From Thiohalomonadales bacterium (GTDB taxonomy: Bacteria; Pseudomonadota; Gammaproteobacteria; RBG-16-57-12), in contig JBNKQQ010000083.1 in assembly GCA_050295955.1 (NCBI GenBank), positions 10,219 through 74,218 on the forward strand: 64,000 bases of DNA, written 5' to 3'. The translations under genes were made by a program, and so were the position numbers. Each line of letters starts with the position of its first letter. Positions within the stretch are counted from its first letter, which is position 1. Shown piece after piece: positions 1,249-64,000 of this stretch. The notes beneath the pieces were generated by a model. The model was not told the DNA's origin and did not search any database. It saw only the letters and a list, made by a program, of their open reading frames with translations.

Positions 1249-1330
1249 GGAGGACTCCTATGGTGGTAATCCTTAAAGAATAGCGGTAATTTGTAATAAC
1301 TCCTAGCGAGAGAAAATACAAAAAAGAAGT

Positions 1331-1429: not shown

Positions 1430-1456
1430 AAAATATGATAGGGTTATTTTTCCAGG

Positions 1457-1909: not shown

Positions 1910-2024
1910 GCGCCTTAAGGTCAGTGATCAGCATAAAGGTTGATGAGGTACTTGTGTATTAATTCCGCATCATCCCCCGCAATCAGGTAAAATCCCTCTT
2001 TTGCAACTCCAAAACGAGAGCAAC

Positions 2025-4183: not shown

Positions 4184-4927
4184 TTAGCCATTCAGGCGCT
4201 GGATGTAGCGCATCCGCTTCCAAGCCAGTAGGTTGCGGTGTTTGTAAACCCACAGACAGCCTAGATCAAACAGAAAGTAGAACAGCGCGATGCCGATAGG
4301 TGGATTGCCACTGGGCATCCACTCAAAGACCCCAAACCATACCGCTGGCCACTGCCAGCAGCCGAAGTAAGTTCCCACTAACTCCAGATAGGCAACAATG
4401 CAGAACATTACCAGGTAGAAGGTACGATTCTCGCCACTGGCTCGATAAAAGGCCAAAAAGCCGAGAAAGCAGCAGAGACCAAACCAGTCGTTTTGGGTGA
4501 GCCACCAGAAGATGACCAAGCCGCTTGCCAGACTAAGTAACAATGGTTGTAGCGGATTCAGCTGTTTGATTCTGGGGCTACGCATCAGCAGATAGACGGA
4601 AGCGTAAACCACCGAATGCCCCAGGAAAACATAGAGTGGAATATTGCCCAGGCGATACTCATACATCCCCAAAATCAGTGAGAACAGTGTTTCACCAAAC
4701 ATGGCGATAGGGATGCCATAGAGCATCAGCTTGCGTAATCGTTGTGTCGCCTGGCGATAGATAAACAGGAAGAAGGTGAGGCAGATGCCGTTGGCCATCC
4801 ATTGGTTGTAGGTCACACGCTCACTAAGCCACTGACTATCCACCGCAAAGATGGTGGGGATGAACAGCAGAAAGATGGGAAAAACCCAATGGCTAAGTTG
4901 TTTTGGCTGTGAGCAGTTTTCCATCAT
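4184..4927 (-). CDS. Polytopic integral membrane protein of unknown function
   Basis: 247 aa with about 7 hydrophobic helices, W/F/Y rich. Confidence 0.55.
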   Translation of the reverse strand: MMENCSQPKQLSHWVFPIFLLFIPTIFAVDSQWLSERVTYNQWMANGICLTFFLFIYRQATQRLRKLMLYGIPIAMFGETLFSLILGMYEYRLGNIPLYVFLGHSVVYASVYLLMRSPRIKQLNPLQPLLLSLASGLVIFWWLTQNDWFGLCCFLGFLAFYRASGENRTFYLVMFCIVAYLELVGTYFGCWQWPAVWFGVFEWMPSGNPPIGIALFYFLFDLGCLWVYKHRNLLAWKRMRYIQRLNG

Positions 4928-5085
4928 TTTTGCGGTCTAGCTGATTTTTGTTAAGTGCCTGCAGGAGGCTTCTAGGATAGGATTGCTTATCCTACCACGC
5001 TCCATTATCCAGCACAGCTATTATCCAACCCCTCAATTGGTTATAATGCAGCCTATTTTTTCGTCATCTAACCAAAGGTTTTTTC

Positions 5086-6678
5086 ATGCTGACCACCGCC
5101 AATATCACCATGCAGTTTGGTGCCAAACCCCTTTTTGAAGATATCTCCGTCAAGTTTGGCGATGGTAATCGTTACGGCCTGATTGGTGCCAATGGTTGCG
5201 GTAAATCAACACTGATGAAGATTCTGGGCGGCGATCTGGAGCCTTCTGCCGGTAATGTCTCCCTGACCCCTAATGAGCGCTTGGGTAAGCTGAAACAGGA
5301 TCAGTTCGCGTATGAAGAGTACACGGTGCTGGATACGGTGATTATGGGGCACGCGGAACTGTGGGCGGTGAAGCAGGAGCGGGATCGTATCTACTCGCTA
5401 CCGGAGATGACGGAAGAGGATGGCATCAAGGTAGCCGAGCTGGAGGTGGAATTCGCAGAGATGGATGGCTATACCGCTGAATCTCGAGCGGGTGAGCTGC
5501 TGCTGGGGGTGGGGATTCCCATTGAGCAGCATGCTGGCCTGATGAAAGAGGTGGCGCCGGGTTGGAAGCTGCGTGTATTGCTGGCTCAGGCACTATTCTC
5601 TGATCCTGACATTCTTCTGCTGGACGAGCCCACCAATAACCTGGATATTAATACTATCCGTTGGTTGGAAGGGGTGTTGAACCAGCGTAACTCCACCATG
5701 ATTATCATCTCCCACGATCGTCACTTCTTGAACAGTGTCTGCACCCATATGGCGGATTTGGATTATGGTGAGCTGCGTATTTATCCCGGGAATTACGATG
5801 ACTATATGATCGCCTCGACCCAAGCCAGAGAGCGTCTGTTGTCAGACAATGCCAAGAAGAAGGCGCAGATTGCTGAACTACAGCAGTTTGTTAGCCGCTT
5901 CTCTGCCAATGCCTCTAAGGCAAAACAGGCCACCTCCCGTGCGAAGCAGATTGATAAGATCCAGCTGGAAGAGGTGAAGCCATCCAGCCGTGTTAATCCC
6001 TTTATCCGTTTTGATCAGGAGAAGAAGTTGCATCGCCTAGCTGTCGAGGTGACTGATCTGGCGAAAAGTTTTGATGATGAGACCCTGTTTAATAACCTCA
6101 ACCTGATGGTAGAGGCGGGTGAGCGTATTGCTATCATTGGACCTAATGGTATCGGTAAAACCACACTGTTGCGCTGCTTGGCCAGTGATCTGGAGAGTGA
6201 TAGCGGTGAGGTAAAGTGGGCCGAGAATGCCCAAGTAGGCTATTTTGCTCAGGATCATGCGGCGGATTTTGCTGAAGATAAAAATCTCACTGAATGGATG
6301 GTTCAGTGGAGCAAGGATGGGGATGATGATCAGGTGATTCGTGGGACCTTAGGCCGTATGCTATTTGGTCGTGATGAGCTGAATAAATCCGTGAAGGTGC
6401 TTTCCGGTGGTGAACAAGGGCGTATGCTGTTTGGTAAATTGATCCTGCAAAAGCCCAATGTCCTGCTAATGGATGAACCTACCAACCACTTGGATATGGA
6501 GTCTATTGAATCATTGAATATGGCACTGGAAAATTATCCTGGCACCTTGTTGTTTGTCAGCCACGACCGGGAGTTTGTCTCATCTATCGCGACGCGGATT
6601 ATTGAAATGTCGCCAGATGGTGTGAGGGACTTCCATGGCAGTTACGATGACTATCTGCGTAGCCAGGGCATCGAATAG
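5086..6678 (+). CDS. ybiT: ABC-F family ATPase YbiT (two ABC ATPase domains, no TMD)
   Basis: 530 aa. Near colinear with the E. coli YbiT N-terminus ([42 protein letters not shown]...). Two Walker A motifs and LSGG signatures. Confidence 0.85.
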
Positions 6679-49200: not shown

Positions 49201-50253
49201 ATGGATGATCAAAGCAATCCAATGGGAACTGATGGTTTCGAGTTCATCGAATATACCGCTGCTGATACCCGGGCATTGGAAGCGCTATTTCAGCAGATGG
49301 GCTTTTCTGCCGTGGCGCGGCATCGCTCCAAAGATGTGGTGCTCTACCGCCAGGGTGATATCAACTTTGTGATTAATCATGAGCCAAACAGCTTTGCTCA
49401 GAGTTTTGCTGATGTGCATGGTCCCTCCTGCTGCGCCTTTGCGATTCGTGTGAAGGATGCCGCCAAGGCCTATCAGCGTGCACTGAAGCTGGGGGCTGAG
49501 CCTTTCAATGGCAAAGTCGGGCCTATGGAACTGAATATCCCCGCTATCCGAGGTATTGGCCGAAGCCTGCTCTATCTGGTGGATCGCTACGAGCATGGCT
49601 CTATCTATGATGTGGATTTTGTTCCTATTGAGGGGGCTGATCTGAATCCTAAAGGGGTGGGGCTGATGCAGATTGATCATCTGACCCATAATGTGCACAA
49701 GGGGCGAATGGATCAGTGGGCCCACTTCTATGAAACCCTGTTTAATTTTAAAGAGATTCGCTATTTCGATATCCATGGTAAGGCGACTGGCCTGAAATCC
49801 CGGGCAATGACCAGCCCTTGTGGGAAGATTCGTATTCCCATTAATGAACCATCAGATGCCAAGTCGCAGATTCAAGAATACCTGGATGCCTATCACGGTG
49901 AGGGAATACAGCATATCGCCCTGACGACTAATGACATTTATGAGAGCATCGAGATGTTGAGGTCAAATGGGGTGGAGCTGATGGATGTGCCGGACACCTA
50001 TTATGAGATGGTGGATAAGCGCCTGCCAGGCCATGGGGAGGATCTGGGGCGTTTGAGTAAGAATCGTATTCTGATTGATGGTGATCCTGCCAATCAAAAG
50101 GGGTTGCTGCTACAGATCTTTACCCAAACGGTGATCGGTCCCATCTTCTTTGAGATTATCCAGCGTAAGGGTAACGAAGGGTTTGGTGAGGGTAACTTCC
50201 GTGCACTGTTTGAATCCATCGAATTGGATCAAATGCGCAGAGGAGTGCTGTAA
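49201..50253 (+). CDS. hppD: 4-hydroxyphenylpyruvate dioxygenase
   Basis: Colinear with Pseudomonas HPPD (NPMG..GFEFIE, HRSK.V.LYRQG.IN, GEGIQH, FFEFIQRKG..GFGEGNF.ALFESIE.DQ.RRGVL). Confidence 0.9.
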   Translation: MDDQSNPMGTDGFEFIEYTAADTRALEALFQQMGFSAVARHRSKDVVLYRQGDINFVINHEPNSFAQSFADVHGPSCCAFAIRVKDAAKAYQRALKLGAEPFNGKVGPMELNIPAIRGIGRSLLYLVDRYEHGSIYDVDFVPIEGADLNPKGVGLMQIDHLTHNVHKGRMDQWAHFYETLFNFKEIRYFDIHGKATGLKSRAMTSPCGKIRIPINEPSDAKSQIQEYLDAYHGEGIQHIALTTNDIYESIEMLRSNGVELMDVPDTYYEMVDKRLPGHGEDLGRLSKNRILIDGDPANQKGLLLQIFTQTVIGPIFFEIIQRKGNEGFGEGNFRALFESIELDQMRRGVL

Positions 50254-51386
50254 TGGCCAAGAACTGGATCAATTTTCCGCGCAGTGAAGGGGAGAGCAGC
50301 GGACAGGCCCATGCAGATCTTCCGGCTGGCAGTTACGAGCGGGAACTGGGACGTGAAGGTTTTTTTGGTCCCGCAACCCAGATGTATCATCGTCATCCCC
50401 CCACTGGCTGGAGCCATTTTAACGGCCCTGTTCGCCCTCGTGCCATCGATACCTGCAAACTTACCCGTACAGTTAACTCGCCCTGGCAGGCAACCCCATT
50501 ATTGGGCAATGCCCATGTGAAGATTCGTCTGTGGCGCAATAGCGGTAATATGGACCACTTGATACGAAACAGCGATGGGGATGAGTTGCTGTTTATCCAC
50601 CAGGGGAAGGGGGAGCTGTTTTGCGACTATGGCCACCTAAGCTTCACCGAAGGGGACTACATTCTGCTGCCACGAGGCACTATGTGGCGAATCGAGAGTC
50701 AGGATGAGCTGAGTGTATTGATGATTGAGGCCACTAACGAGGCCTATTATCTACCAGAGAAGGGGATTGTTGGACAGCACGCGATTTTTGATCCGGCAAT
50801 GCTGGACACACCAAAGATCGATGGGGCATTTCTACAGCAGCAGGATGAAAACCCCTGGCAGGTGGTGGTCAAACGGGCCAATCAACTGACAACCATTGAG
50901 TATCCCTACAATCCGCTAGATGCCATTGGCTGGCATGGCGATCTAACCACGGTGAGAATTAACTGGCGGGATATCCGGCCATTGATGAGCCACCGTTATC
51001 ATCTGCCTCCATCCGCCCACTCCACCTTTGTGGCACCACGCTTCGTGGTCTGTACCTTTTGTCCCCGGCCCATGGAGAGTGATCCTGGCGCTTTGAAGGT
51101 ACCGTTTTTCCATAGTAATGACGATTTTGACGAGGTGATCTTTTATCACATGGGAGAGTTCTTCTCCCGGGACAATATCCACCCCGGCATGATTACCTTC
51201 CATCCCTGCGGATTCCCCCATGGTCCTCATCCCAAGGCGTTGGCCGCCGGAATTCAGGCAAAGCGTCAGGATACCAATGAGGTGGCGGTGATGATTGATA
51301 CGCGGGATGGTTTGGAGTTGGCACTGCTTCCAGATGGGGTGGAATGGCAAGGCTATGTTGATTCCTGGAAAGGGGAGAGTAAATGA
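50253..51386 (+). CDS. hmgA: Homogentisate 1,2-dioxygenase (short form)
   Basis: Lies between hppD and fahA. Cupin architecture with WHG and FHSND/FHPCGFPHGPHP segments resembling HmgA. 377 aa, shorter than ~430-aa forms. Confidence 0.6.
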   Translation: MAKNWINFPRSEGESSGQAHADLPAGSYERELGREGFFGPATQMYHRHPPTGWSHFNGPVRPRAIDTCKLTRTVNSPWQATPLLGNAHVKIRLWRNSGNMDHLIRNSDGDELLFIHQGKGELFCDYGHLSFTEGDYILLPRGTMWRIESQDELSVLMIEATNEAYYLPEKGIVGQHAIFDPAMLDTPKIDGAFLQQQDENPWQVVVKRANQLTTIEYPYNPLDAIGWHGDLTTVRINWRDIRPLMSHRYHLPPSAHSTFVAPRFVVCTFCPRPMESDPGALKVPFFHSNDDFDEVIFYHMGEFFSRDNIHPGMITFHPCGFPHGPHPKALAAGIQAKRQDTNEVAVMIDTRDGLELALLPDGVEWQGYVDSWKGESK

Positions 51387-52363
51387 AGCTGGCATCACTA
51401 AAAACAGGCTCTCGAGATGGTACGCTGATTGTGGTTAGTCGTGACCTGGAGCGTTATACACCAGTACCACTGCCAGAAACTCTACAGCAGGCGCTAGAGG
51501 CGTGGAGTGATAACCAACCATTATTGGAAACGCTCTACCAGCAACTCAATGAGGGTGAGATTAGCGGTCTGCCGCTGGAGGTGAATGAGTTGGCTTCACC
51601 CCTACCCAGGGCCTACCAATGGTTGGATGGTAGTGCCTACCTCAGTCATGTGGAGAGGGTGAGGCGTGCCCGTGGTGCAGAGATGCCACCCAGCTTTCTT
51701 CATGATCCTTTGATGTACCAGGGAGGATCGGATACCTTCTTAGGGCCTCGGGATGAGATTGTTGCCCAAGAGGCTTGGGGCATTGACCTGGAAGCGGAAG
51801 TGGCAGTCATCACTGATGATGTGCCCATGGGGGTGAGCGTGGATGAGGCAGGAACCCATATTCGCCTGGTGATGTTGGTGAATGATGTCTCACTACGCAA
51901 CCTGATTCCCAATGAGTTAGCCAAGGGATTTGGCTTTCTCCATGGCAAGCCGCCTAGCGCCTTTTCCCCGGTAGCCGTTACACCCAATGAATTGGGTGAG
52001 GCGTGGCGTGATCATAAATTACATCTGCCTCTGTTAGCCCGGCTCAATGGCCAGCTATTGGGTCATCCCAATGCAGGGGTGGACATGCAGTTCAGCTTTG
52101 CTCAACTAATTGCCCATGCCGCGACCACCCGTCCTCTGGCCGCAGGTACAATTATTGGTTCCGGCACGGTCTCTAACCAAGATCAGGACAAAGGGGTCTG
52201 TTGTTTAGCGGAGCGTCGGGTGCTGGAGATTATCGAAAAGGGTGAAGCGAAGACACCTTTCCTCAAACACGCTGATGAGGTGATGATTGAGATGGAGAAT
52301 GAAAGAGGGGAAAATCTATTCGGAGCCATTGTGCAACGGATTAACTGCCAGGAGTCAGACTGA
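51383..52363 (+). CDS. fahA: Fumarylacetoacetate hydrolase family protein (fumarylacetoacetase)
   Basis: FAH-fold motifs. Operon position between hmgA and maiA. Confidence 0.7.
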   Translation: MKLASLKTGSRDGTLIVVSRDLERYTPVPLPETLQQALEAWSDNQPLLETLYQQLNEGEISGLPLEVNELASPLPRAYQWLDGSAYLSHVERVRRARGAEMPPSFLHDPLMYQGGSDTFLGPRDEIVAQEAWGIDLEAEVAVITDDVPMGVSVDEAGTHIRLVMLVNDVSLRNLIPNELAKGFGFLHGKPPSAFSPVAVTPNELGEAWRDHKLHLPLLARLNGQLLGHPNAGVDMQFSFAQLIAHAATTRPLAAGTIIGSGTVSNQDQDKGVCCLAERRVLEIIEKGEAKTPFLKHADEVMIEMENERGENLFGAIVQRINCQESD

Positions 52364-53026
52364 GTGTCTTCCTATATCCTTTATACCTATTTTCGTAGTA
52401 GTGCCGCTTATCGGGTTCGCATTGCCTTAAATCTCAAAGGGATCGAATACCATCCCCACTATGTTCACCTAAAGAGAGGGGAGGATAAGCAGCAGGCTTA
52501 TCGCAATATCAACCCACTGGGGCTGGTACCCACCTTACAGGTACAGGGGCATCACAACGATGTGGTGATTACCCAATCAATGGCAGCTATCGAATACCTG
52601 GAAGAGACACACCCTGAACCGAGCTTACTGCCGGGCTCAGCAGCCCTGCGGGCGCAGATCCGCGCCTTTGCCCAGAGCATCTGCTGCGATATTCACCCAC
52701 TCAATAATCTTCGGGTGCTCAATTATCTGGAACATCCCATGGGGATCAGCGAGACCCCACGCAAACTCTGGTATTGCAACTGGATTGATACTGGCCTGAG
52801 CGCCTTGGAAGAGATCATGCGGCGGCGGGATGAGAATACACCATATTGTTTTGGGGAGGCGCCCACCATGGCGGATGTATGCCTGATTCCCCAGCTCTAC
52901 AATGCCAAACGTTTTGACTGTGATACCAAAGCCTATCCTATTTTGACCCAGATCTATGACAACTGCCTGCAGCTGGAAGCGTTCCAGCGGGCAGCGCCTG
53001 AAAACCAGGCAGACTGGGAGGATTAG
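52364..53026 (+). CDS. maiA: Maleylacetoacetate isomerase (GST zeta class)
   Basis: LYTYFRSSAAYRVRIALNLKGI ... SMAAIEYLEE typical of GST zeta/MaiA. Confidence 0.85.
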   Translation: MSSYILYTYFRSSAAYRVRIALNLKGIEYHPHYVHLKRGEDKQQAYRNINPLGLVPTLQVQGHHNDVVITQSMAAIEYLEETHPEPSLLPGSAALRAQIRAFAQSICCDIHPLNNLRVLNYLEHPMGISETPRKLWYCNWIDTGLSALEEIMRRRDENTPYCFGEAPTMADVCLIPQLYNAKRFDCDTKAYPILTQIYDNCLQLEAFQRAAPENQADWED

Positions 53027-53048
53027 GCAACGGATCAGGAGGTATGTG

Positions 53049-53942
53049 ATGAGTGAACAAGATCTTCAGCAATTTGCTACACAGCATCAGTTACAGGGGC
53101 TGAGCCCTACTTCACTACAAGCCCTGGTAGACAATGAGCCTGGTTATAACATTGAGAAAGCCCAGCATTTTCTGCGGTTTCAGCGGCGTATTAATGAAGA
53201 GCTGCTGACCCATCGGGTGATTCTGGATAACGCCTTCTGTAACTGGTTTGAAAAAGGGGCGCTAAGCGAGGAGCAGGTAAAGGCCTTTGTGATACAGTTC
53301 TCTGTCTTTTCCAACCTGTTCCTGTTTGCTCAGCTGCATAAGACCATTAATGCCGATACGCTGGAGGGGATGCGGGCCTCCAAAGAGATACTGGCTAATG
53401 AAATCGGGGTAATTTTTCGTACTGATAAGGGGCGAGGCAGCGAATCAGAACTGGTCTCCAGCGAAGGTACCGTAGAGGGAGGCGAGTTCCGCTTTGCAGC
53501 AGCTCACTTCGAGTGGTTACTGTTGTTGGCGGAAAAATTGGGGTTGGGGTTTAACGATGTCGGTAAACGGCGCCACGGTACGGCATCTACACTGTTTTTC
53601 TGTGATGAACTGAATCGTCTCTATGGTAGCGAAGATTATATGATCTCCCAGGCTGCCAGTTATGCGGTAGAGAACTGGGCTGCCGCGGGCTTCTGGGATC
53701 AACTGGTAGAAGGCTTCACTCTCTTTAACGAGCAGCATGGTAAGCAACTTCCCCTGGGGTTTTTCACCTGGCACGCCATGATTGAGGCGCAACATGCTGC
53801 GCATACTCAGGAGGAACTGGAAGAGCTCTACTTCAGTCGTGATATCAATGAAGATGACTTCATTCGTTATGGTAATGAAATGTTAGATGGCGTTGCCGCT
53901 TTCTGGGATGGGCTGGATGAGCAGCGTAAAACATTAGGATAA
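53049..53942 (+). CDS. Hypothetical protein, possibly heme-oxygenase-like (TenA/PqqC/CADD) fold, co-transcribed with the tyrosine catabolism genes
   Basis: AGGAGG RBS 7 nt before the ATG at 53049. Helical, His/Glu/Trp-rich. Fold call is tentative. Confidence 0.4.
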   Translation: MSEQDLQQFATQHQLQGLSPTSLQALVDNEPGYNIEKAQHFLRFQRRINEELLTHRVILDNAFCNWFEKGALSEEQVKAFVIQFSVFSNLFLFAQLHKTINADTLEGMRASKEILANEIGVIFRTDKGRGSESELVSSEGTVEGGEFRFAAAHFEWLLLLAEKLGLGFNDVGKRRHGTASTLFFCDELNRLYGSEDYMISQAASYAVENWAAAGFWDQLVEGFTLFNEQHGKQLPLGFFTWHAMIEAQHAAHTQEELEELYFSRDINEDDFIRYGNEMLDGVAAFWDGLDEQRKTLG

Positions 53943-54045
53943 GATTAATCTCTGTCGATCAGGAAATTAATTTCTAGTCTAAATTGTATTGTTTTTTAAG
54001 GGCATAGCAGTGGTATGATGAAGAGCCTTAGGGGGGTGATTCATC

Positions 54046-54612
54046 ATGATTAGAGTTCTCAGTATTCTTTCTATCTTGCTAATCTCATTACAGACAGCAG
54101 GGGCGGCATTTGATGTCGAATCCAAAGCAAGCCTCTGTGCTATCTGCCATGAACATAGCGGTGATGCCTTGGTGCCAACGCTATCCGGCCAATCCAAAGC
54201 TTATCTTCTACAACAGCTAAAACGCTACCAAAGCGGCGAGCGGGAGAGCAGCGTGATGTCCGCGGTAGTGAAATCTTTCAGTAACGATCAGGAGATGGCA
54301 GCGGTAGCGGAGTATTTCTCCAAGCAAGAGGCGAAGGGAGGCACGGTGGCTGACAGTGAGCAGTTCTATGTGGGTAAACATATCTTTGAACAGAAGCTTG
54401 CTTGTGTCAGCTGTCATGGATTTGATGGGCAGGGTAAGTCTGGCAAGAATTTAATTGTGCCTAATTTAGTAGGGCAAAAATCAGAATATATTATCCAGCG
54501 CCTCAAGGACTTTCGGGAATCACAACAAAAAGAGAACCCCATGGTTCAGGTGGCAGAAAAGTTGGAGGATAGCGAGATTGAGAGCATCGCTAGCTATCTG
54601 AGCGGTATGTAG
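54046..54612 (+). CDS. Diheme c-type cytochrome (c4-like)
   Basis: Signal peptide. CAICH and CVSCH heme-binding motifs. Confidence 0.75.
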   Translation: MIRVLSILSILLISLQTAGAAFDVESKASLCAICHEHSGDALVPTLSGQSKAYLLQQLKRYQSGERESSVMSAVVKSFSNDQEMAAVAEYFSKQEAKGGTVADSEQFYVGKHIFEQKLACVSCHGFDGQGKSGKNLIVPNLVGQKSEYIIQRLKDFRESQQKENPMVQVAEKLEDSEIESIASYLSGM

Positions 54613-54682
54613 CAACGGCTCACTCGCAATCCCGGAGCAACAAGCGCATAATGGGCGAAATTTCCAAAACCCATGTGTGATT

Positions 54683-54934
54683 ATGACCAACAACGAAATT
54701 ATCAAAAAGCTGCGCATCGCTCTGGACCTGAAAGAGCTGGATATGATTGAGATCTTCGAACTCTCTGGATATGAGATCAACAAATCAGAACTCTCCGGCA
54801 TCTTTCGCAAAGAGGGGCACAAAAATTACCGCGAGTGCAGCGACAAAGTGCTGAACCATTTTCTCAATGGTTATATTGTCTACAGGCGGGGCTTGGAAGA
54901 GGAAGAGGCTGTGATAGAAGTAACCGACCAATAA
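54683..54934 (+). CDS. DUF1456 (YehS-like) single-domain protein
   Basis: EIIKKLRIALDLKELDMIEIFELSGYEI ... similar to the YehS repeat unit. Confidence 0.5.
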   Translation: MTNNEIIKKLRIALDLKELDMIEIFELSGYEINKSELSGIFRKEGHKNYRECSDKVLNHFLNGYIVYRRGLEEEEAVIEVTDQ

Positions 54935-55018
54935 AAGCCCCCAGTTCACTTGTTCCCCCACACAAACCCCCGTACAATCCGGCTATATAGTTAGCCGCCT
55001 CCGGAGTAAGAACGAGGA

Positions 55019-55774
55019 ATGTCTCAAAAAGTGATGTCATCACAGTCCCTATTAAAAGAACCCGTTGTCGAGTTCAAGGGCTCCAGCTTTACCCTTACCA
55101 TCCTGGTAATCTCCAGCTTCGATCTTGATACCATTGTTGAAGATATCAAAAAGCGCCTTGCTCAGGCGCCACGCTTTTTCCTGCACGCCCCGGTGGTGGT
55201 GGACCTCAATCCGCTGAAAGAGCAGCAGGGAGAACTGGACTTTGCCGCATTAGCAGAGCAGTTGCGAGCGCTGGAACTGGTACCCGTTGGCGTTTGCAAT
55301 GGCAATCCCTGCTTCTATGAAGCTGCCGTAGCCGCTGGCTTCGCTGTACTGCAGTCTGGTCCACAGCCACGCGCAGTCCAGCGGGAAGAGCCCAAGCCAG
55401 CCCCACAGCCTGAGCCTAAAGTGGTTGAGCAGCCCAAGGCGGAACCACTGGTGATCCACAAACCAGTACGCTCTGGCCAACAGATCTACGCCAGAGGCCG
55501 AGACCTGATCCTGATGGCCCAGGTGAATGCTGGGGCTGAAGTGATTGCCGATGGCAACATCCACGTCTATGCTCCTTTGCGAGGCCGAGCGCTGGCTGGT
55601 GTTCAAGGGGATACCAATGCCCGTATTTTCACCCTTAATTTCGGCGCTGAAATGGTGGCAATTGCTGGCAACTACCGTGTATTTGAAGAGCAGCCCGCCA
55701 CCGATGTGGCAGGCAAAACCAGTCAAGTTTATCTCGATGGCGAACAACTGATTGTTGCGCCATTGGTTTCATAA
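55019..55774 (+). CDS. minC: Septum site-determining protein MinC
   Basis: MinC N- and C-domains (C-terminal beta-helix GNIHVYAPLRG). Followed by minD and minE. Confidence 0.9.
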   Translation: MSQKVMSSQSLLKEPVVEFKGSSFTLTILVISSFDLDTIVEDIKKRLAQAPRFFLHAPVVVDLNPLKEQQGELDFAALAEQLRALELVPVGVCNGNPCFYEAAVAAGFAVLQSGPQPRAVQREEPKPAPQPEPKVVEQPKAEPLVIHKPVRSGQQIYARGRDLILMAQVNAGAEVIADGNIHVYAPLRGRALAGVQGDTNARIFTLNFGAEMVAIAGNYRVFEEQPATDVAGKTSQVYLDGEQLIVAPLVS

Positions 55775-55796
55775 AATTCCTAGGGGAGGTTAAGCC

Positions 55797-56606
55797 TTGT
55801 CAAAGGTAATCGTTGTAACATCCGGAAAAGGTGGCGTAGGCAAGACCACCAGTAGCGCCAGTATCGCGACCGGTCTGGCGATGAAAGGCCACAAGACTGC
55901 AGTCATCGACTTCGACGTGGGCCTAAGAAACCTGGATCTGATAATGGGGTGTGAGCGCCGCGTGGTATACGATCTGGTTAATGTTATCCACGAAGAGGCA
56001 ACACTTAAACAAGCCCTGATTCGTGACAAGCGCTGTGATCAACTCTACATCCTGCCAGCCTCACAAACCCGCGACAAAGATGCTCTGACCACTGAAGGGG
56101 TTGAGCGGGTGCTGGAAGAGCTGAAAAAAGAGTTCGACTACATCGTTTGTGATTCACCTGCCGGTATCGAGCAGGGCGCTGTGATGGCACTCTACTTTGC
56201 CGATGAAGCCTTCATCGTCACCAACCCAGAAGTCTCCTCGGTGCGTGACTCTGACCGCATACTTGGCATCCTGAATGCTAAATCCAAGCGTGCCCAAGAG
56301 GGCGCAGAGCCTATTAAAGAGCACCTGCTCATCACCCGCTACTCACCTAACCGTGTTGAAACCGGTGAGATGCTGAGCATTGATGACATCAAAGAGCTGC
56401 TGGGTATCGATCTGATTGGTGTGATTCCTGAATCAGAAGCCGTACTACAAGCTTCCAACTCCGGCACCCCAGTGATCCATGATCAACAGAGCACCAGTGG
56501 CCAAGCCTACGCTGATGTTGTGGATCGCTTCCTGGGAGAGGAACGCCCGCTACGCTTTATCGAGCCTGAGAAGAAGGGCCTGTTGAAACGACTGTTTGGG
56601 ACCTAA
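55797..56606 (+). CDS. minD: Septum site-determining ATPase MinD
   Basis: VVTSGKGGVGKTT deviant Walker A. C-terminal amphipathic helix. TTG start. Confidence 0.95.
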   Translation: MSKVIVVTSGKGGVGKTTSSASIATGLAMKGHKTAVIDFDVGLRNLDLIMGCERRVVYDLVNVIHEEATLKQALIRDKRCDQLYILPASQTRDKDALTTEGVERVLEELKKEFDYIVCDSPAGIEQGAVMALYFADEAFIVTNPEVSSVRDSDRILGILNAKSKRAQEGAEPIKEHLLITRYSPNRVETGEMLSIDDIKELLGIDLIGVIPESEAVLQASNSGTPVIHDQQSTSGQAYADVVDRFLGEERPLRFIEPEKKGLLKRLFGT

Positions 56607-56608
56607 CC

Positions 56609-56869
56609 ATGTCACTACTCGATTATCTATTGCGAAAAAAGAAAAAGCCCAGCGCCTCGGTCGCCAAAGAGCGTCTACAGATCATCCTGGCCCGAGAGCA
56701 CGGTAATGACGAACCAGACTTCCTGCCAGAACTTAAACGGGAACTGCTGGAAGTGATCAGCAAATACACCAACATTGATTTGGATGAGATCAGCGTCAAT
56801 CTGGATAAAGAGGACGACTGCGAAATCCTTGAAGTCAACGTAGTGTTGAATAAGAAGGATGCGGCGTAA
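56609..56869 (+). CDS. minE: Cell division topological specificity factor MinE
   Basis: MSLLDYLLRKKKK N-terminus. 86 aa. Confidence 0.95.
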   Translation: MSLLDYLLRKKKKPSASVAKERLQIILAREHGNDEPDFLPELKRELLEVISKYTNIDLDEISVNLDKEDDCEILEVNVVLNKKDAA

Positions 56870-56960: not shown

Positions 56961-57200
56961 TTCTAAAAGTGTGTGTAGGAGCCTGCTTGCAGGCGATGGG
57001 CTTTTATATCGCTATTGCTGTAGGAGCTTGCCCTGCAAGCGAACCCACTCAATTCTAATAAGCGTGTGTAGGAGCCTGCTTGCAGGCGATGGGTTTTTAT
57101 ATCGCTACTGCTGTAGGGGCTTGCCCTGCAAGCGAACCCACTCAATTCTAATAAGCGTGTGTAGGAGCCTGCTTGCAGGCGATGGGTTTTCATATCGCTA
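56961..57200 (+). repeat. Tandem BIME-like array: ~91-bp units each containing REP (gtaggagcctgcttgcaggcgat) and variant REP' (gtagg[a/g]gcttgccctgcaagcga)
   Basis: Units begin at ~56961, 57051 and 57143. REP is identical to the pair at 1362-1421. A further REP variant lies at 57528-57550. Confidence 0.8.
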
Positions 57201-57204
57201 CCGC

Positions 57205-57571
57205 GATGAAGTGGATATCACTTCGTGAGGTTTTATTGGCATCGGGATTCCGTCCCGATAGCCGGGTCACTTTTTTACCGTAAAAAAGTAACCAAAAAAG
57301 CTCTCCCGAAAAATGCGGTCGCCAACAACGCGACTTCCCTCGGTTCTCACTATGAACAGCACTCCTGGCAACTCGCTTCGCTCAAACATGCCATCCGCTT
57401 AATCTGTTCATCGCTGCGAGCCTCGGCACATTTGAACGGGGATGAAAGGCATGGCATATTCCGCTAACGCGGAAGAAAAAGTCATTCTGCACTTGATTCA
57501 GAATCCAGGCTAATTCTAAAAAGCGTATGTGGGAGCCTACTTGCTGGCGATGGGTTTTATATCGCTACCGC
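57205..57571 (+). repeat. Structured repeat element, copy L1 (hairpin-rich, ~200-bp conserved core)
   Basis: Hairpins gaagtg-gatat-cacttc, atcggga-ttccg-tcccgat, cttttttac-c-gtaaaaaag. Core ggtcgccaacaacgcgacttccctcggttctcac...caaacatgccatccgc...gcgagcctcggc...catttgaacgg. Confidence 0.75.
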
Positions 57572-57900
57572 GATGAAGTGGATATCACTTCGTGAGGTTT
57601 TGTTGGCATCGGGATTCCGTCCCGATAGCCGGGTCACTTTTTTACCGTAAAAAAGTAACCCAAAAAACTCCCCCGAAATATGGTCGCCAACACCGAGACT
57701 TCCCTCGGCTCTCGCTACGAATGGCGCTACTGGCAACTCGCAAACTACGCTCAAACATGCCATCCGCTCTTTCCGTTCGTAGCTACGAGCCTCGGCAGTA
57801 TTTGAACGGGAATGAACGGCGTTTATATATTTCGCTAACGCGAAAGATGAAGAGCCGCTTCGCGGAGTAATTGAATGGGTGCTTGCGACCCGTTGTAGCC
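57572..57900 (+). repeat. Structured repeat element, copy L2
   Basis: Same architecture as L1 with indels and paired substitutions. Putative ORF frames differ between copies, so noncoding. Confidence 0.75.
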
Positions 57901-58090
57901 ATTGGCAGGCAGCTAATTGAACGTCAGCCATTGGTAAAAATTAACAATCAATATATACATTCAAATAGATTGGGTTGACTAGGTATCCCATGCAAGCAAA
58001 GTTGCAAATTGGCTTAATGATCAATAGTGCTCTTGGAAGGAACCTCCTTCCGATAACACTACTTGCACCGGATTGCTGTTGGTGAATGAA

Positions 58091-59173
58091 TTACGAATGG
58101 GGGGGCTCAAGTCTAGGTGAACAAACCCCTGATGTAGGCATCGTAATTCCCCATGGATAAGCCGGAGTTTCTCCTCGTTGATACTGGTAAACTGTTACCT
58201 TAGGTAAATTTCGTTTGTCATAAAGTGTTCCAAAGCGGAATACCAAACTGCTCGGCCCAGCGATAAAAAGGTGGATGTGGTTAATTCCGTAACTGTCCAA
58301 TTTAGTGAGCATTTCAAGAAATTGCCTGCCTAATGCTCGCTGCTTGTCTTCTGACCAGTGAGAGTCTGGCCCAGCATTCTGCAATTCGAGATGAATTAAT
58401 GGAATATTAGGTAGTTTCTTCTGAATCTCAGGTAAATTGGCTATGTATGATATAGAAATGGCTAAGACTGCCTCTGTTGATTCTTGGTCAAGTTGTGTCC
58501 CAAGATATTTAGTATCAAAGCGATTTCCATCGTCAGCTTTTTCAAGCTGCTGCCATCTTTTTTTATGTCGCTCCCAATCAAAGATATGAATTTCCGATTC
58601 ATCATCTAGAATTGTCCCTGCTAGAAAAGTTAGAGGAACAGGGGCCAGTCCTCCAAATACAGTTGTAATATCATTTCTATTGTTTCCAGCTTCATATTGG
58701 TCAAGCTGATAAGTGATATGTACTAATTTATCTAGAGCAACTTGAGGTTCAACGATATAGCCATCTCTAATATTTTGCCTGAGATCTACTAGTATGCTAT
58801 TACGTCTTCCCTCAAAGTAGGGGGGGAGCGATTCATTTAAAGGAGTACCGGCTGAATCGCGAAGCCCTCTTACTTCAATAACATTTACTCTTTTGCGCGA
58901 TAACGCTCGATATTCCATGGTATGTCTAATTATTTCCCATGGTATGGCTATTGATATTAATGCAATACCGAGGAAGTAAGTTGTATAGATCAAGAGTGAA
59001 GGAATATTTCCCTCAATATCGATATCTAATTTGAAAGAGTCTCCACTTTCAACAGAAAAGGTAATATCTGCAGCAGCAGCTAGAGTGAGTAGAAATACCC
59101 CTGCTCTTAGAAAATACAATGCAGGTGACTTTTTACGAATAATCCAGTATATGATTTGTTTAATTATTGTCAC
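58091..59173 (-). CDS. CBASS-like effector: N-terminal 2-TM domain fused to a SAVED-like (CARF-related) sensor domain
   Basis: Two N-terminal TM helices. C-terminal ~270 aa ending HIHLFIAGPSSLVFRFGTLYD, resembling the SAVED C-terminal motif. Immediately downstream of the nucleotidyltransferase. Confidence 0.5.
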   Translation of the reverse strand: MTIIKQIIYWIIRKKSPALYFLRAGVFLLTLAAAADITFSVESGDSFKLDIDIEGNIPSLLIYTTYFLGIALISIAIPWEIIRHTMEYRALSRKRVNVIEVRGLRDSAGTPLNESLPPYFEGRRNSILVDLRQNIRDGYIVEPQVALDKLVHITYQLDQYEAGNNRNDITTVFGGLAPVPLTFLAGTILDDESEIHIFDWERHKKRWQQLEKADDGNRFDTKYLGTQLDQESTEAVLAISISYIANLPEIQKKLPNIPLIHLELQNAGPDSHWSEDKQRALGRQFLEMLTKLDSYGINHIHLFIAGPSSLVFRFGTLYDKRNLPKVTVYQYQRGETPAYPWGITMPTSGVCSPRLEPPHS

Positions 59174-59195
59174 GTCTTTAGTTACCTCCCCGCTT

Positions 59196-60710
59196 CTATT
59201 GGATATTCACTATAAATTGCCCACTACGCGCTGCTAGCAGTCCATCTTTTACTATAAAGCATTCTATGCTGTGCATACCTTTATAGGAGGTGGACTCCTG
59301 TCTTGTTAATGAGTTGCAGTCTCTAGAAAAGTCACCCCGTAATCCACAAGCCAATTTAGCTTCGTTACCAGTATTTACCACCTGCCAGTGTACTTTATAT
59401 GGAGGTGGAATATTTGTTGTAGCCTCAAACTTTAAATCGCAGTTTTTCGGCAAGGCTTCACCGTTGCTATCAAATCGGTATGGCCCATATTTATTCTTTC
59501 TATATGTAGCCTTTGCAATTTGAACATTCCCTTGTACTGAAGTCTTCCAAGGGGGAGTTTGTTTATGGGGAGGATTTAGAGCTAACTGTTTGCTTGAATG
59601 ATGGTGTATGTCACTGTAATTTACGTTGTTCTTTGAAAGTGATGCATCGATTAGTTTTTTTCCTAATCTAGGTGTGAGGGTATTAGCTGCAGATTCCTCA
59701 TTTAGTGCATTAGCTGCACTGTAGAAATCTTCTCTCGCTTGGGCGAGCCACTCATAGAATGCACCTTTCCTTTCAGGATATTGTTGCCAGCGGTCAGAAA
59801 AATTTTCAGCCGGGTCCGTCGGGTTGGGTATCCATGACACTCCATTACGTGTCTCTATAAAGCTATCCATGCGTTGAAGAATACTATACAGTGCCCCTGA
59901 TATAGTCGGTTCTTGCTGGTATGCATGACCTGCCAATGTGGTTAAAATAATGGATATGGGCTTTTCATCCAATCGTTTAGCAAACATAGTATTCCTATGA
60001 TGCTTGAGAAGTTGAATAGCTGACTGTAGTGGTGTACGAACCTTATAGTCTGGTATATCTTCAACGCTAGCATTAATTGCATAAGCAAGTTCCTTTTTTC
60101 TCTGCTCAAAAATCACAGTCATTCGGGATTTGAACCAGTCGCTATATCCCTTAGGGTTGCTATGTGGCCAATAAGAAGTGATGCATTTGTAATATGGGTG
60201 ATCCCTATCAGTAATGGCGATTGCAGATTCAGACCATTTCGAAGAAAATCCTCTGCTAGCAAGAAGATATCTCATATCCTCCCCGTCAGGGATTGCAGGC
60301 AGTGTATCCAAATGAAATTGTGCACCATCAGCATAGTTTTGGGTCCAACAGCGTCTGCCTTCATCAGGTATTTTCATTTCATGTGCTTTCGCATACTCCT
60401 TTAACTCAAAACCCAAGGCTTCCTTCAATTGATGTTGTGTTAATGAGCTTTTTGACAAAGTCAGTTCACAAACTAGATCAATGTCATAATCGTCATCACC
60501 TGAGTGGGGTTTAATGACTGTTCCTAAACGAAATGATCCTTGAACGTATACCTGTGGATTTGCATCTTTAAGCTTGGAGCTATCTCTGTTTAGCCATTTA
60601 CCAACTGATGTATAGCTGCGCTCTGCTGCTTCATATCTGCTGGGAGATATTTGTAGTGCTTCTACTGCATTTTCAAGTAGCTTTTCAGTGTGTTTCTTAA
60701 TGTTTGTCAT
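59196..60710 (-). CDS. SMODS/CD-NTase-type (cGAS/DncV-like) nucleotidyltransferase with ~300-aa C-terminal extension (possible AGS-C sensor)
   Basis: QGSFRLGTVIKPHSGDDDYDIDLV = GS...[DE]x[DE] Pol-beta NTase motif, in SMODS-like N-terminal context (..Y..V..WL). 504 aa. Confidence 0.6.
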   Translation of the reverse strand: MTNIKKHTEKLLENAVEALQISPSRYEAAERSYTSVGKWLNRDSSKLKDANPQVYVQGSFRLGTVIKPHSGDDDYDIDLVCELTLSKSSLTQHQLKEALGFELKEYAKAHEMKIPDEGRRCWTQNYADGAQFHLDTLPAIPDGEDMRYLLASRGFSSKWSESAIAITDRDHPYYKCITSYWPHSNPKGYSDWFKSRMTVIFEQRKKELAYAINASVEDIPDYKVRTPLQSAIQLLKHHRNTMFAKRLDEKPISIILTTLAGHAYQQEPTISGALYSILQRMDSFIETRNGVSWIPNPTDPAENFSDRWQQYPERKGAFYEWLAQAREDFYSAANALNEESAANTLTPRLGKKLIDASLSKNNVNYSDIHHHSSKQLALNPPHKQTPPWKTSVQGNVQIAKATYRKNKYGPYRFDSNGEALPKNCDLKFEATTNIPPPYKVHWQVVNTGNEAKLACGLRGDFSRDCNSLTRQESTSYKGMHSIECFIVKDGLLAARSGQFIVNIQ

Positions 60711-60729
60711 ATATTCTTAACCTCTCCAA

Positions 60730-60963
60730 TCAATCTTTAGGTGGATATGGGTCATTGCCATGACTATCGCTACTGGCAATACGTCCATTTTTATTGTGAA
60801 TGCGCAATTCAGTGCCTTGATTGCGACTGGTTTCACGCCCTTTGCTGATAGCATCAGCTTTTGTTTTATGGTGGCTGCTTGCCCGTTGAGCTTCACCACG
60901 TTTAACATCCCAGCCACCTTGAGGGTTGGATACGATGTGATGCGTTTTAGGACCTTTTGGCAT
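60730..60963 (-). CDS. DUF2188 small protein, immediately upstream of and co-oriented with the nucleotidyltransferase
   Basis: KGPKTHHIV.NP.GGWDVKR...RASSHH.TKADAI..GRE.SRNQGTEL.IH.K.GRI...DSHGNDP.PPKD matches DUF2188 consensus. Confidence 0.65.
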   Translation of the reverse strand: MPKGPKTHHIVSNPQGGWDVKRGEAQRASSHHKTKADAISKGRETSRNQGTELRIHNKNGRIASSDSHGNDPYPPKD

Positions 60964-61269
60964 AATAATGCTCCTTTGCTTTATATATTTAACTAATTTT
61001 TAATCGATTATTAAGGGTTTCCTCAATTGCATACCTAATAGCAATTAGAGATAAATATCCCCTAGTGCTTATATATACTGCTGAGAATAAAAAAGTGGCG
61101 ATTTTTTGTAAAAACTTATAAGTCACTGTTAATGAAGGATAAAATTTTGTGCCGAATTCATTTTGTTAATTTGGCCTGTTGTAGATATAATTATTCTTAT
61201 ATAAATTTTATGGTGAATTTTTTCTCCACTTTTGCATTTTGAACAGTATTAGGGATATAGGAGGAAGTT

Positions 61270-61842
61270 TTGAGCGACCAAGCACATTACACTGAAATTG
61301 AGGTTGAGGAACTTATTCAAGGGCTTACTGATTCTCAAATAGCCAAGATGCTGCATGTTTATCGAAATAAGGGATGTCAGCAAAGGGCGGGACTATCAGG
61401 GCATGATGTTTTTCAAAATGCTGTAATGAAAGCTTTATCAAAAAAGAATTGCTGGAAAAAGGGAATCCCTGCTGAAGCTTATCTAATTATGCTAGGAAAA
61501 AATTATATAAGTAATGAGGAGAAAAAATATTCACGGAATGTTTATGAATCACAATCTGATAATTTACAGATTGAGGCACTTCCTATAACAGCTGTAGACT
61601 GCTCTGAACACACTCATGAGTTCATAATTCAGGAATGGGTTGGTAAAATTGTTAGCCTCTTTGCTGATGATAAAGATGCTTCTTGTTTTTTGAAAAGCAA
61701 GTTGGCACAGGCCAAAAAAGCTAAAATACTCGCTTTATGTAGATTTACAGATCAGGCATATCGAAATGTTGAAAAAAGGATTAAAGATAAGGCAAGGAAG
61801 AGATTTCCTGGTGGTGTGCCGTTTAATGAGGCAACGCTATGA
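61270..61842 (+). CDS. Hypothetical protein (190 aa), first gene of a divergent tri-cistronic operon
   Basis: TTG start with GGAGGA RBS. No recognisable domain. Its stop overlaps the next start. Confidence 0.4.
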   Translation: MSDQAHYTEIEVEELIQGLTDSQIAKMLHVYRNKGCQQRAGLSGHDVFQNAVMKALSKKNCWKKGIPAEAYLIMLGKNYISNEEKKYSRNVYESQSDNLQIEALPITAVDCSEHTHEFIIQEWVGKIVSLFADDKDASCFLKSKLAQAKKAKILALCRFTDQAYRNVEKRIKDKARKRFPGGVPFNEATL

Positions 61843-62276
61843 GTGCTGAATTTCTTAAAATGATCAATGAGTACATTATCGATTCAATTATTGAATGTGA
61901 TGATGATGAGTATTTGTCAAATATAGGAAAGGATGGTTATTCATCTCAAGAGGACATTGACTTTGCTAGATCATTTATCCAAGCCACTGTTAGGGAGCTA
62001 AGGCAAGAGCGCTTAAATGCTAGTAGAGAGCGTTATGCTCAATCAAAAAGCCAAAAAAGTGGTGTATTAGATACCATTTCTACAACAAAGCCTCTCCAAG
62101 AGATGCTTACTCAGATTATTTCAGTGATGCAAAGTGAAGAGCAGGTGCCTGATGGGTTACTTATCGCTTTTAGGGAACAAGGGAAAACTGGTAGTGAAGA
62201 GGGTATTCGCAATATATGGAAATCTCTCGTTGAGCTTGGATTAATTGATCCTGAGAAGGATGAAAATTCGAAATGA
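61839..62276 (+). CDS. Hypothetical acidic protein (145 aa), second gene of the operon
   Basis: ATGA overlaps on both sides. No recognisable domain. Confidence 0.4.
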   Translation: MSAEFLKMINEYIIDSIIECDDDEYLSNIGKDGYSSQEDIDFARSFIQATVRELRQERLNASRERYAQSKSQKSGVLDTISTTKPLQEMLTQIISVMQSEEQVPDGLLIAFREQGKTGSEEGIRNIWKSLVELGLIDPEKDENSK

Positions 62277-63040
62277 GGTTCAAGCAACAACCCAATGATA
62301 TTTTGAAAAGGCTTGGCATGTATGAGCCTGAAGATATTGATTTGGATTTAATTGCATTTGATTTGGGTGCTGAGGTGAAAAGAGCATCGTTGAATGATTG
62401 TGAAGGGAATATCCTAGGAACGTCAACGAAGGCAATTATTACAATTAATAAGATTTCTAGAATTGAAAGGCAGCGTTTTTCATTAGGACATGAGTTGGGA
62501 CACTGGGTAAATGATCGGGGAAAAAATTTAACTTATCGTTGTACTACGGACGATATGCGGCAACGCTCTATGATTCAAGAAGATTTTCGCCAAAATAAAG
62601 AAGTGCGTGCAAATCAATTTTCAGCAGAGCTCCTTATGCCTGACTTCATATTCAAAAGGTATGCTGAAAATTTGGATATTATCCTAAAGACAGCAAGATA
62701 CCTTGCAAATACTTTTAATGTGTCACTCACAAGTACCGTTATAAGGCTTGTTGAGTTATCTGAGAGGCCATGCATGATTATTTGCTGGGACAAGATGGGT
62801 AAACGGCGCTGGTTCTCACGTAACGATATTATTCCTGAAAAAATATGGCCACATGAAAGAATTTTTCATCCTCAAGAAGTATTCAAGCTTTCAGATGGAG
62901 TAGAGGTGGATGCTGATAAATGGATCAACTTGGCAGGATCAGAGAATTACACCGTAATCGAAAGTATATTTTCAAATACATATGACTTTTTATCACTCAT
63001 TTGGTGGAAGGATGAAGAGCAGCTAGCTCACTATCTATGA
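62273..63040 (+). CDS. ImmA/IrrE-family zinc metallopeptidase (CapP-like) with C-terminal Cys/His-containing domain
   Basis: HELGHW (HExxH) at the N-terminal peptidase core. Downstream E in QFSAELLMP. C-terminal CMIIC ... HERIFH. Confidence 0.6.
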   Translation: MRFKQQPNDILKRLGMYEPEDIDLDLIAFDLGAEVKRASLNDCEGNILGTSTKAIITINKISRIERQRFSLGHELGHWVNDRGKNLTYRCTTDDMRQRSMIQEDFRQNKEVRANQFSAELLMPDFIFKRYAENLDIILKTARYLANTFNVSLTSTVIRLVELSERPCMIICWDKMGKRRWFSRNDIIPEKIWPHERIFHPQEVFKLSDGVEVDADKWINLAGSENYTVIESIFSNTYDFLSLIWWKDEEQLAHYL

Positions 63041-63084
63041 GCTGCTACCTCAGATGATTCTCTACCTATAGCTATGACTACTTA

Positions 63085-63420
63085 GTACCGCATGCGGCCA
63101 TCCAATTTTTCCTACAAAGCGGTTCTTTTTCTTTTGCGTTAGCAAAACATAAAATGCTTTTCACATCCCGTTCAAATGCAGCCGAGGCTCGCAGCTGTGG
63201 ACGGATAGAGCGGATGGCATGTTTGAGCGTAGTTTGCGAGTTGCCAGGAGCACCGTTCGCAGTGAGAACCGAGGGAAGTCGCGTTGTTGGCGACCGGTAT
63301 TTTCGGGCCTTCTCTTTGATTACTTTCTCTTGGCCGTTCAAGAGAAAGTCATTAGCTGTCGGGCTACCCCCGACATCTCATTAATCGTCACGCAGTGACA
63401 CATAATCTTACCGCAGAGCC
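63085..63420 (-). repeat. Structured repeat element, copy R1 (inverted relative to L1/L2)
   Basis: The reverse complement matches the L-copy core (ggtcgccaacaacgcgacttccctcggttctcac...). Hairpins actttctcttg-aacggc-caagagaaagt and tgtcggg-ggtag-cccgaca replace the L-copy hairpins at the same positions. Confidence 0.75.
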
Positions 63421-63489
63421 AGTAGGGCAGGCTCACTACAGTGATAGTGATATAAAAATCGCGACTCGATTACTGTATTGCATTTCTGT

Positions 63490-63835
63490 GAGTTGAAGCC
63501 TGGATTCTGAATCAAGTTCAGAATGACTTTTTCTTTCGCGTTAGCGAAACATTAAATGCAGTTAATTCCCGTTCAAATACAGCCGAGGCTCGCAGCTGTG
63601 GACGGATAGAGCGGATGGCATGTTTGAGCGTAGTTTGCGAGTTTCCAGGAGCACCGTTCGCAGTGAGAACCGAGGGAAGTCGCGTTGTTTGCGACCTGTA
63701 TTTTCGGGCGGCCTTCTCTTTGATGACTTTCTCTTGGCCGTTCAAGAGAAAGTCATTAGCTGTCGGGTTACCCCCGACATCTCATTAATCGTCACGCAGT
63801 GACACATAATCTTACCGCAGAGCCAGTAGGATGCG
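63490..63835 (-). repeat. Structured repeat element, copy R2
   Basis: Near identical to R1. Confidence 0.75.
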
Positions 63836-63939
63836 GTGATAACCGCATCGATCGAGACAGAATCATTACACGACTGATGCGGTTCGTTCCTCACCACATC
63901 CTACATTGAATGACCGCTCCAGCCGCTTTTGGCCATCTA

Positions 63940-64000
63940 ATTTATCTCGCGTAGCGGTTCTTCTTTTTTCGCGTTAGCGGAATATAAAATGCCTTTCCTA
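63940..64000 (-). repeat. Structured repeat element, copy R3 (partial, truncated by window end)
   Basis: cttcttttttcgcgttagcggaatataaaatgc parallels the R1/R2 starts. Confidence 0.5.

Follow-up and report, generated by a model that had tools for sequence, protein, structure and literature searches.

The window, a 64,000-nucleotide stretch of a Thiohalomonadales contig (JBNKQQ010000083.1), contains a six-gene block of 5.3 kb that has a GC content of 39% in a neighborhood of 51% GC and lies just downstream of minCDE and genes of the homogentisate pathway. Two divergent operons make up the block. One encodes, in order, a DUF2188 protein, a cGAS/DncV-like nucleotidyltransferase (CD-NTase, here also called the cyclase) with an AGS-C domain, and a membrane protein; the other encodes two proteins that we call p190 and p145, and the peptidase CapP (Table 1). 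We analyzed the membrane protein, hereafter the effector, and find it very likely to be a Cap14-family (Saf-2TM plus SAVED) effector of a type I cyclic oligonucleotide-based antiphage signaling system (CBASS). This assignment draws on domain composition, fold, topology, operon linkage, and the active site of the partner cyclase.

The effector matches two Pfam domains, both well past the Pfam gathering thresholds: Saf_2TM (PF18303) at residues 3 to 147 (expectation value [E], 4.4e-22; 79 bits against a cutoff of 29.5) and SAVED (PF18145) at residues 162 to 345 (E, 1.8e-43). The NCBIfam SAVED model NF033611 extends the second match to residues 93 to 346 (E, 6.2e-50; model positions 4 to 260 of 261), which covers the whole two-lobed domain. 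Among CBASS profiles from PADLOC, the "Effector, 2TM" model PDLC00707 is matched end to end (residues 3 to 355; E, 9.7e-124), followed by SAVED2--SAVED_TM (residues 3 to 354; E, 2.9e-117). At these Pfam and PADLOC values the resemblance is beyond chance. All 35 columns that are invariant across 37 family members are kept in this protein. An earlier sequence-only reading of the DNA had proposed a putative 2TM-SAVED membrane effector and had named PF18145 as the profile to look for; the Saf-2TM and SAVED matches, together with the structural matches to Cap14 described below, bear this out.

The effector gene follows the cyclase gene closely. The cyclase stop codon, TAG, occupies positions 59198 to 59196, and the 22-nucleotide (nt) spacer, AAGCGGGGAGGTAACTAAAGAC, contains the Shine-Dalgarno sequence GGAGG. 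The sequence-only reading had given exactly the coordinates listed in Table 1, to which we add the strand, and had placed the start 23 bp past the cyclase stop, which is right when the first base of the GTG codon is counted from the last base of the stop. It had also suggested cotranscription with the cyclase gene, and the shared strand and short gap indeed indicate tight operon linkage. An imperfect hairpin with a 17-bp stem and no clear T-run, some 30 nt past the effector stop codon, is a weak candidate for a terminator.

Hydropathy and structure prediction agree on the layout of the protein. Kyte-Doolittle analysis (19-residue windows; threshold, >1.4) delimits two hydrophobic segments at about residues 16 to 44 and 55 to 83, within which the predicted membrane spans run from about 17 to 39 and from about 57 to 82. 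An AlphaFold2 (AF2) model built on 37 family members (mean predicted local distance difference test [pLDDT] score, 88.9; predicted template modeling score, 0.83) places helices at residues 17 to 36 (transmembrane helix 1 [TM1]) and 59 to 93 (a long TM2 and juxtamembrane helix), followed by an alpha/beta SAVED domain at residues 95 to 356. The two N-terminal TM helices read from the sequence alone are thus recovered, and the model adds a short amphipathic, interfacial helix (residues 2 to 13) ahead of TM1. The soluble part, estimated earlier at about 270 aa, spans about residues 94 to 360, or about 267 aa. Its C-terminal motif IHLFIAGPSSLVFRFGTLYD (residues 299 to 318), which had been likened to Rossmann-type strands, forms a strand (299 to 305) and then a helix (308 to 317) in the model, a beta-alpha unit of the Rossmann-like type. 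The inter-TM loop (residues 37 to 58) is acidic and modeled with low confidence. Charges of +4 at the N terminus, -4 in the inter-TM loop, and +3 after TM2 satisfy the positive-inside rule and fit a topology with both termini inside; this pattern places the SAVED domain in the cytoplasm, where the cyclase product would be.

Solved structures point to the same family. By sequence, the best match in the Protein Data Bank (PDB) is 9om7, the SAVED domain of Bacillus thuringiensis Cap14 (BtCap14) with 2',3'-cyclic GMP-AMP (2',3'-cGAMP) (E, 5.8e-17), followed by 9wq2 and 9wq3, a 3TM-SAVED dimer and filament with 2',3'-cGAMP (E, 8.4e-14), and then by Cap5 SAVED domains. A Foldseek search of the PDB with the AF2 model ranked the cryo-EM entries 9wq3, 9wq2, and 9om7 at the top (E, 1e-21 to 2e-19), ahead of Cap5, Cap4, SAVED-CHAT, and SAVED-Lon structures. 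The alignment to chain G of 9wq3 covers 372 columns (E, 1.1e-21; template modeling [TM] scores, 0.60/0.64), and the target-normalized TM score against the isolated SAVED domain 9om7 is 0.77 to 0.79. Cap5 (HNH-SAVED) and Cap4 (endonuclease-SAVED), which the sequence-only reading had named as the structures to compare, share the SAVED sensor fold (Foldseek E, 1e-15 to 1e-10; target TM score of isolated Cap5 SAVED domains, 0.77 to 0.78) and rank behind the Cap14 entries; their effector module is a nuclease, whereas here it is a membrane domain.

Table 1. Features of the defense island and of related loci (window coordinates unless a locus is named)
Feature	Coordinates	Strand	Basis or description
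cap14-like effector gene (Saf-2TM + SAVED)	58091..59173	minus	360-aa open reading frame (ORF), GTG start; Pfam, PADLOC, AF2, Foldseek
Saf-2TM membrane module, residues 3-147	58733..59167	minus	Pfam, hydropathy, AF2 secondary structure, charge distribution
TM1, residues 17-36	59066-59125	minus	AF2 helix and hydropathy
TM2, residues 59-82	58928-58999	minus	AF2 helix and hydropathy
SAVED nucleotide-sensor domain, residues 93-346	58136..58897	minus	NF033611, PDB 9om7, Foldseek
Possible terminator, 17-bp imperfect hairpin	58025..58061	minus	Inverted repeat downstream of effector stop
Cyclase-effector spacer, 22 nt	59174..59195	minus	Ribosome-binding site GGAGG; sequence read directly
CD-NTase (cyclase), 504 aa	59196..60710	minus	Pfam SMODS, DncV-like NTase, AGS_C; PADLOC PDLC00770
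AGS-C domain of cyclase, residues 381-504	59199-59570	minus	Pfam AGS_C, E 5.4e-29
DUF2188 gene, 77 aa, isoelectric point (pI) 10	60730..60963	minus	Pfam PF09954, E 6e-21; PADLOC PDC-S16, E 5e-34
Divergent intergenic region, 306 nt, AT-rich	60964..61269	.	Presumed promoters/operators of both operons; sequence
p190, 190 aa, weakly extracytoplasmic function (ECF)-sigma-like; first gene of regulator operon	61270..61842	plus	Weak NCBIfam/PDB matches
p145, 145 aa, acidic (pI 4.5), all-helical; usual CapH position	61839..62276	plus	
capP, Zn-metallopeptidase, HELGH at residue 73	62273..63040	plus	PADLOC, Pfam, PDB, motif
Left flank, two tandem copies of ~370-nt repeat	57185..57850	.	Inverted relative to right flank
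Right flank, at least two tandem copies of ~400-nt repeat	63125..64000	.	Inverted relative to left flank
p190/p145/CapP-type triad, locus L079	7429-9217		
p190/p145/CapP-type triad, locus L082	2683-4498		

The gene upstream of the effector, which the sequence-only reading had called a cyclase, is a CD-NTase by its full-length match to PADLOC PDLC00770 (E, 2.4e-208). Among solved structures, its best match is PDB entry 9woo, which is named "Cyclic GMP-AMP synthase" and is presumably the B. thuringiensis enzyme; 344 residues align with 41% identity (E, 1e-74), a level too low to predict the product. The Serratia marcescens enzyme SmCdnG (8hsb) is more distant (E, 2e-31). Relative to 9woo, the catalytic residues G58-S59, D76-x-D78, and D135 are kept, and the active site is intact.

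The DUF2188 gene heads the operon and is separated from the cyclase gene by 19 nt, giving the order DUF2188, CD-NTase(AGS-C), Cap14. Neither Cap2/Cap3 genes, which mark type II systems, nor HORMA/TRIP13 genes, which mark type III, were found by Pfam and PADLOC among the neighboring genes (DUF2188, p190, p145, and CapP only), and for this reason we classify the system, by its gene content, as type I CBASS. About 40% of type I operons have been described as carrying an AGS-C fusion, which nearly all clade B type I CD-NTases share and which the other CBASS types lack (10.1101/2023.05.21.541620).

In the databases searched, 197 proteins from many phyla match the effector at an E of ≤1e-3, the nearest being 53% identical. 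We compared 78 loci, 77 of them species representatives and one (L001) this island's own short-read contig. A CD-NTase is present at 60 of these loci, and a cyclase with AGS-C lies directly upstream of the effector at 15 (14 excluding L001), with DUF2188 accompanying 11 of the 14. DUF2188 matches occur at 16 of the 78, in most cases immediately upstream of the cyclase. The DUF2188-CD-NTase(AGS-C)-Cap14 arrangement therefore recurs in at least 11 other genomes.

Many other loci carry a cyclase without AGS-C, 48 to 54% identical in its core, about 2.3 kb upstream of the Cap14 homologue (L027-L029, L033, L034, L037, L040, L043-L048, L052, L056, L060-L062, L064-L066, and L073). At the single such locus that we checked, L043 from Stenotrophomonas geniculata, the gap holds Cap2 (ThiF) and Cap3 (JAB), which makes it a type II CBASS. 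The L043 effector is 39% identical to ours and has the same two Pfam domains, and the cyclase cores are 54% identical, but that system has Cap2 (E1/E2) and Cap3 and no AGS-C, whereas the present one has AGS-C and DUF2188 and no Cap2 or Cap3. Judged from these gene arrangements, type I and type II systems share one effector family, and closely related cyclase-effector pairs appear to exist in the type I (AGS-C) and type II formats.

By homology to characterized systems, the effector would act through a chain that leads from cyclase product to SAVED binding, oligomerization, and membrane failure. The CD-NTase would make a cyclic dinucleotide during infection, most probably an isomer of cGAMP that contains a 2'-5' linkage, for instance 2',3'-cGAMP, and the SAVED domain would bind it with high affinity. 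Ligand binding would drive head-to-tail SAVED oligomerization into filaments, which would cluster and rearrange the TM hairpins and render the inner membrane permeable. The cell would then die ahead of the maturation of phage progeny (abortive infection). DNA damage or single-stranded DNA (ssDNA) probably turns on expression of the operon via the divergently encoded CapP peptidase module.

The closest precedent is the B. thuringiensis system, whose BtCap14/3TM-SAVED structures are the best sequence and fold matches of this effector and whose type I operon has an adjacent CdnB-like, cGAS-type CD-NTase, as the operon at this locus appears to have. B. thuringiensis CdnB makes 2',3'-cGAMP, and BtCap14 binds it with a dissociation constant of 11 nM and conducts ions only in the liganded state; the Bt407 Cap14 operon protects against phage >10^4-fold and shows the phenotype of abortive infection (Tak, Walth, and Whiteley, PMC10402079). 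Two later Cap14 studies, as summarized in a 2026 review, describe ligand-induced filaments and a hairpin rearrangement between the TM segments, and the same summary reports non-specific permeabilization or fissuring of the membrane (PMC13434031). Oligomerization driven by a second messenger and consequent membrane disruption, which the sequence-only reading had anticipated, has thus since been demonstrated in Cap14 homologues (PMC10402079; PMC13434031) and may be expected here by analogy. The 2TM-SAVED effector of the S. marcescens E2-CBASS (SmCdnG; 3',2'-cGAMP) has the same architecture, and its toxicity needs coexpression of the cGAS-like enzyme and the effector (10.1101/2025.03.04.641389); that system is of the E2 type with an Exo regulator, whereas the present one is type I.

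Several observations weigh against a simple equation with BtCap14. Identity in the structural alignment is just 15 to 21%, with the sequence match restricted to the SAVED part, so that neither the ligand nor the exact membrane lesion can simply be transferred. BtCap14 is described as having three TM helices, whereas the first helix here has 12 residues and is too short to cross a bilayer. The inter-TM loop, the region that rearranges in the Bt filaments according to the later work summarized in PMC13434031, has a pLDDT of <50 at residues 39 to 55 and is shorter by 4 residues than that of most family members. In addition, the BtCap14 host is Gram-positive and the host here is Gram-negative-like, the 396-aa 9woo enzyme lacks the AGS-C domain of our cyclase, and the locus, unlike the Bt system, has a DUF2188 gene in the operon and a CapP regulator module. 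These differences leave the effector inside the Cap14 family, and no evidence contradicts that assignment.

The nature of the active state is the point on which a rival reading comes closest. With the same family and trigger, the effector could instead assemble as a small oligomer, for example a tetramer, into a discrete nucleotide-gated, anion-selective channel and so dissipate ion gradients, in place of a filament that tears or bends the membrane. For BtCap14, a 2023 preprint described currents that were stepwise, sensitive to Gd3+, and dependent on chloride, and modeled a tetramer (PMC10402079). The TM region here has an amphipathic character, in that TM2 contains polar Y/T residues and the loop is acidic. 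Against this, the later work, as summarized in the review, found filaments that form upon ligand binding and a membrane non-specifically permeable to ions and water (PMC13434031), and PDB entry 9wq3 is a filament. The present sequence does not distinguish the two models, and we consider the channel unlikely on the evidence from the homologues.

Decay is a different kind of objection: the gene could be an orphaned remnant that has lost its defense function, as might befit a horizontally acquired, repeat-flanked, low-GC island whose effector has no relative closer than 53% identity. The gene itself speaks otherwise, with an intact, full-length ORF that matches the family profile end to end and retains every family-invariant residue, and its surroundings are in the same condition, from the active site of the partner cyclase to the regulator genes, including the CapP HELGH motif. 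We therefore regard loss of function as very improbable. The TM helices, and nothing further, would favor an unrelated membrane transporter or receptor with a superficial likeness to SAVED; an unrelated transporter was one of the outcomes that the sequence-only reading had named as refuting it. Searches of Pfam, NCBIfam, and PADLOC and of structures returned no transporter family match, the SAVED profiles score between 1e-43 and 1e-50, the structural matches to Cap14 are full length, and the gene shares its operon with a CD-NTase. The Pfam, PADLOC, PDB sequence, and Foldseek matches refute this identity, to which we attach almost no credence. A Cap14-family effector remains the reading that we adopt.

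Divergent from the CBASS operon is a regulator operon of three genes, p190, p145, and capP, joined by overlapping ATGA junctions. CapP is recognized by PADLOC capP (E, 6.4e-50), Pfam Peptidase_M78 (E, 2.8e-16), and PDB entry 7t5t CapP (E, 2.8e-8). In the CapH+CapP control described by Lau et al. in 2022 (10.1101/2022.04.27.489752), the CapP gene is likewise divergent from the CBASS genes. That system has a CapH repressor, whereas here no CapH or helix-turn-helix (HTH) protein was found and p190 and p145 stand in its place: neither matches capH or an HTH domain in Pfam or PADLOC. The positive control for the capH search was locus L019 from Pseudohongiella, where the orthologous operon has a canonical XRE-HTH CapH (PADLOC capH E, 9.5e-23) and CapP. 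Within the intergenic region between the two operons, promoter-like consensus sites on both strands showed no excess over shuffled expectation, and no inverted repeat or operator palindrome was found.

Of the two small proteins, p190 matches NCBIfam sigma-factor models at an E of 6.5e-4 to 0.1, always on residues 36 to 128 or thereabouts, and the sigma factor in PDB entry 5uxx at an E of 0.06. It has no Pfam or PADLOC match, and its family profile has no match in the PDB. The family is small (21 clusters), and 1 of 18 members shows a weak Sigma70_r2 match. Together, these matches weakly suggest a sigma factor. For p145, the AF2 model matched neither CapH nor any other structure, and no relative with a known function was detected by sequence or by fold. 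Named relatives of both proteins include Gammaproteobacteria records.

The p190/p145/CapP triad is also found elsewhere, flanking a type II CBASS with a Cap4-like effector (L079 to L081) and an unannotated operon (L082), and by its gene neighborhoods it is portable between defense operons. In L082, a metagenome-assembled contig, the triad is divergent from four genes, small or unannotated, encoding 52, 42, 314, and 209 aa (571 to 2459, minus strand); neither Pfam nor PADLOC gives a match for the 314- and 209-aa products, and these genes may be an undescribed defense cargo. A PADLOC PDC-S08/5'-nucleotidase-family gene follows the triad there (4535 to 5485, plus strand). Lau et al. noted 24 CBASS systems with capH/capP and a sigma70-family gene, as well as DUF2188 operons under CapH/CapP control, neither of which was studied (10.1101/2022.04.27.489752).

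A sigma factor/anti-sigma-like/protease switch is a reasonable interpretation of this gene content. Specifically, p190 as a divergent ECF-like sigma factor and p145 as an anti-sigma-like protein would together replace the CapH repressor; ssDNA-activated CapP would cleave p145, and CBASS would be turned on via its dedicated sigma factor. We put this forward tentatively, as a possibility that we hold to be less probable than not. If true, CBASS here would be under positive control upon DNA damage or phage replication, not under de-repression.

The flanking repeats on the two sides of the block share a core of about 185 nt at 80 to 88% identity, in inverted orientation. In an independent assembly, the short-read contig L001 corresponds exactly to positions 57855 to 63158 of the window, the assembler having broken inside the flanking repeats; these ends imply that the repeats are multicopy in that genome. 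We considered and rejected integron cassettes or attC sites, as the repeats are inverted between sides, about 370 to 400 nt long, and tandem. Structured RNA was likewise rejected: there was no Rfam match even at an E of ≤1, and folding z-scores were about 0 on both strands. No tRNA or rRNA gene was found in the window. Just after minE, at positions 56967 to 57200, are 2.5 tandem copies of a 93-nt unit like a repetitive extragenic palindromic (REP) element, with the palindromic motif GTAGGAGCCTGCTTGCAGGCGATGG and short copies elsewhere in the window (57521 to 57568 and 1359 to 1422); we take this unit to resemble Pseudomonas-type REP elements. Farther left, positions 49201 to 56869 (plus strand; 51% GC) carry, by eye from the translations, hppD-, hmgA-, fahA-, and maiA-like ORFs, a cytochrome c-like gene, and minCDE, which on that inspection are ordinary housekeeping genes.

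The effector is thus a divergent, previously unstudied member of the already characterized Cap14 family, in a standard type I CBASS. To a family whose mechanism was recently solved in Bacillus it adds a Gram-negative-type member with at most 53% identity to any other protein in the databases searched, and it is a possible point of comparison for ligand specificity, for the role of the short N-terminal helix, and for the inter-TM hairpin. The less ordinary part of the locus is not the effector but the non-canonical CapP module next door. The same DUF2188-CD-NTase(AGS-C)-Cap14 cargo is under canonical CapH and CapP in L019 and under the sigma-like/p145/CapP triad here, a natural experiment in which an as yet unstudied variant of DNA-damage-responsive immune regulation can be tested directly.

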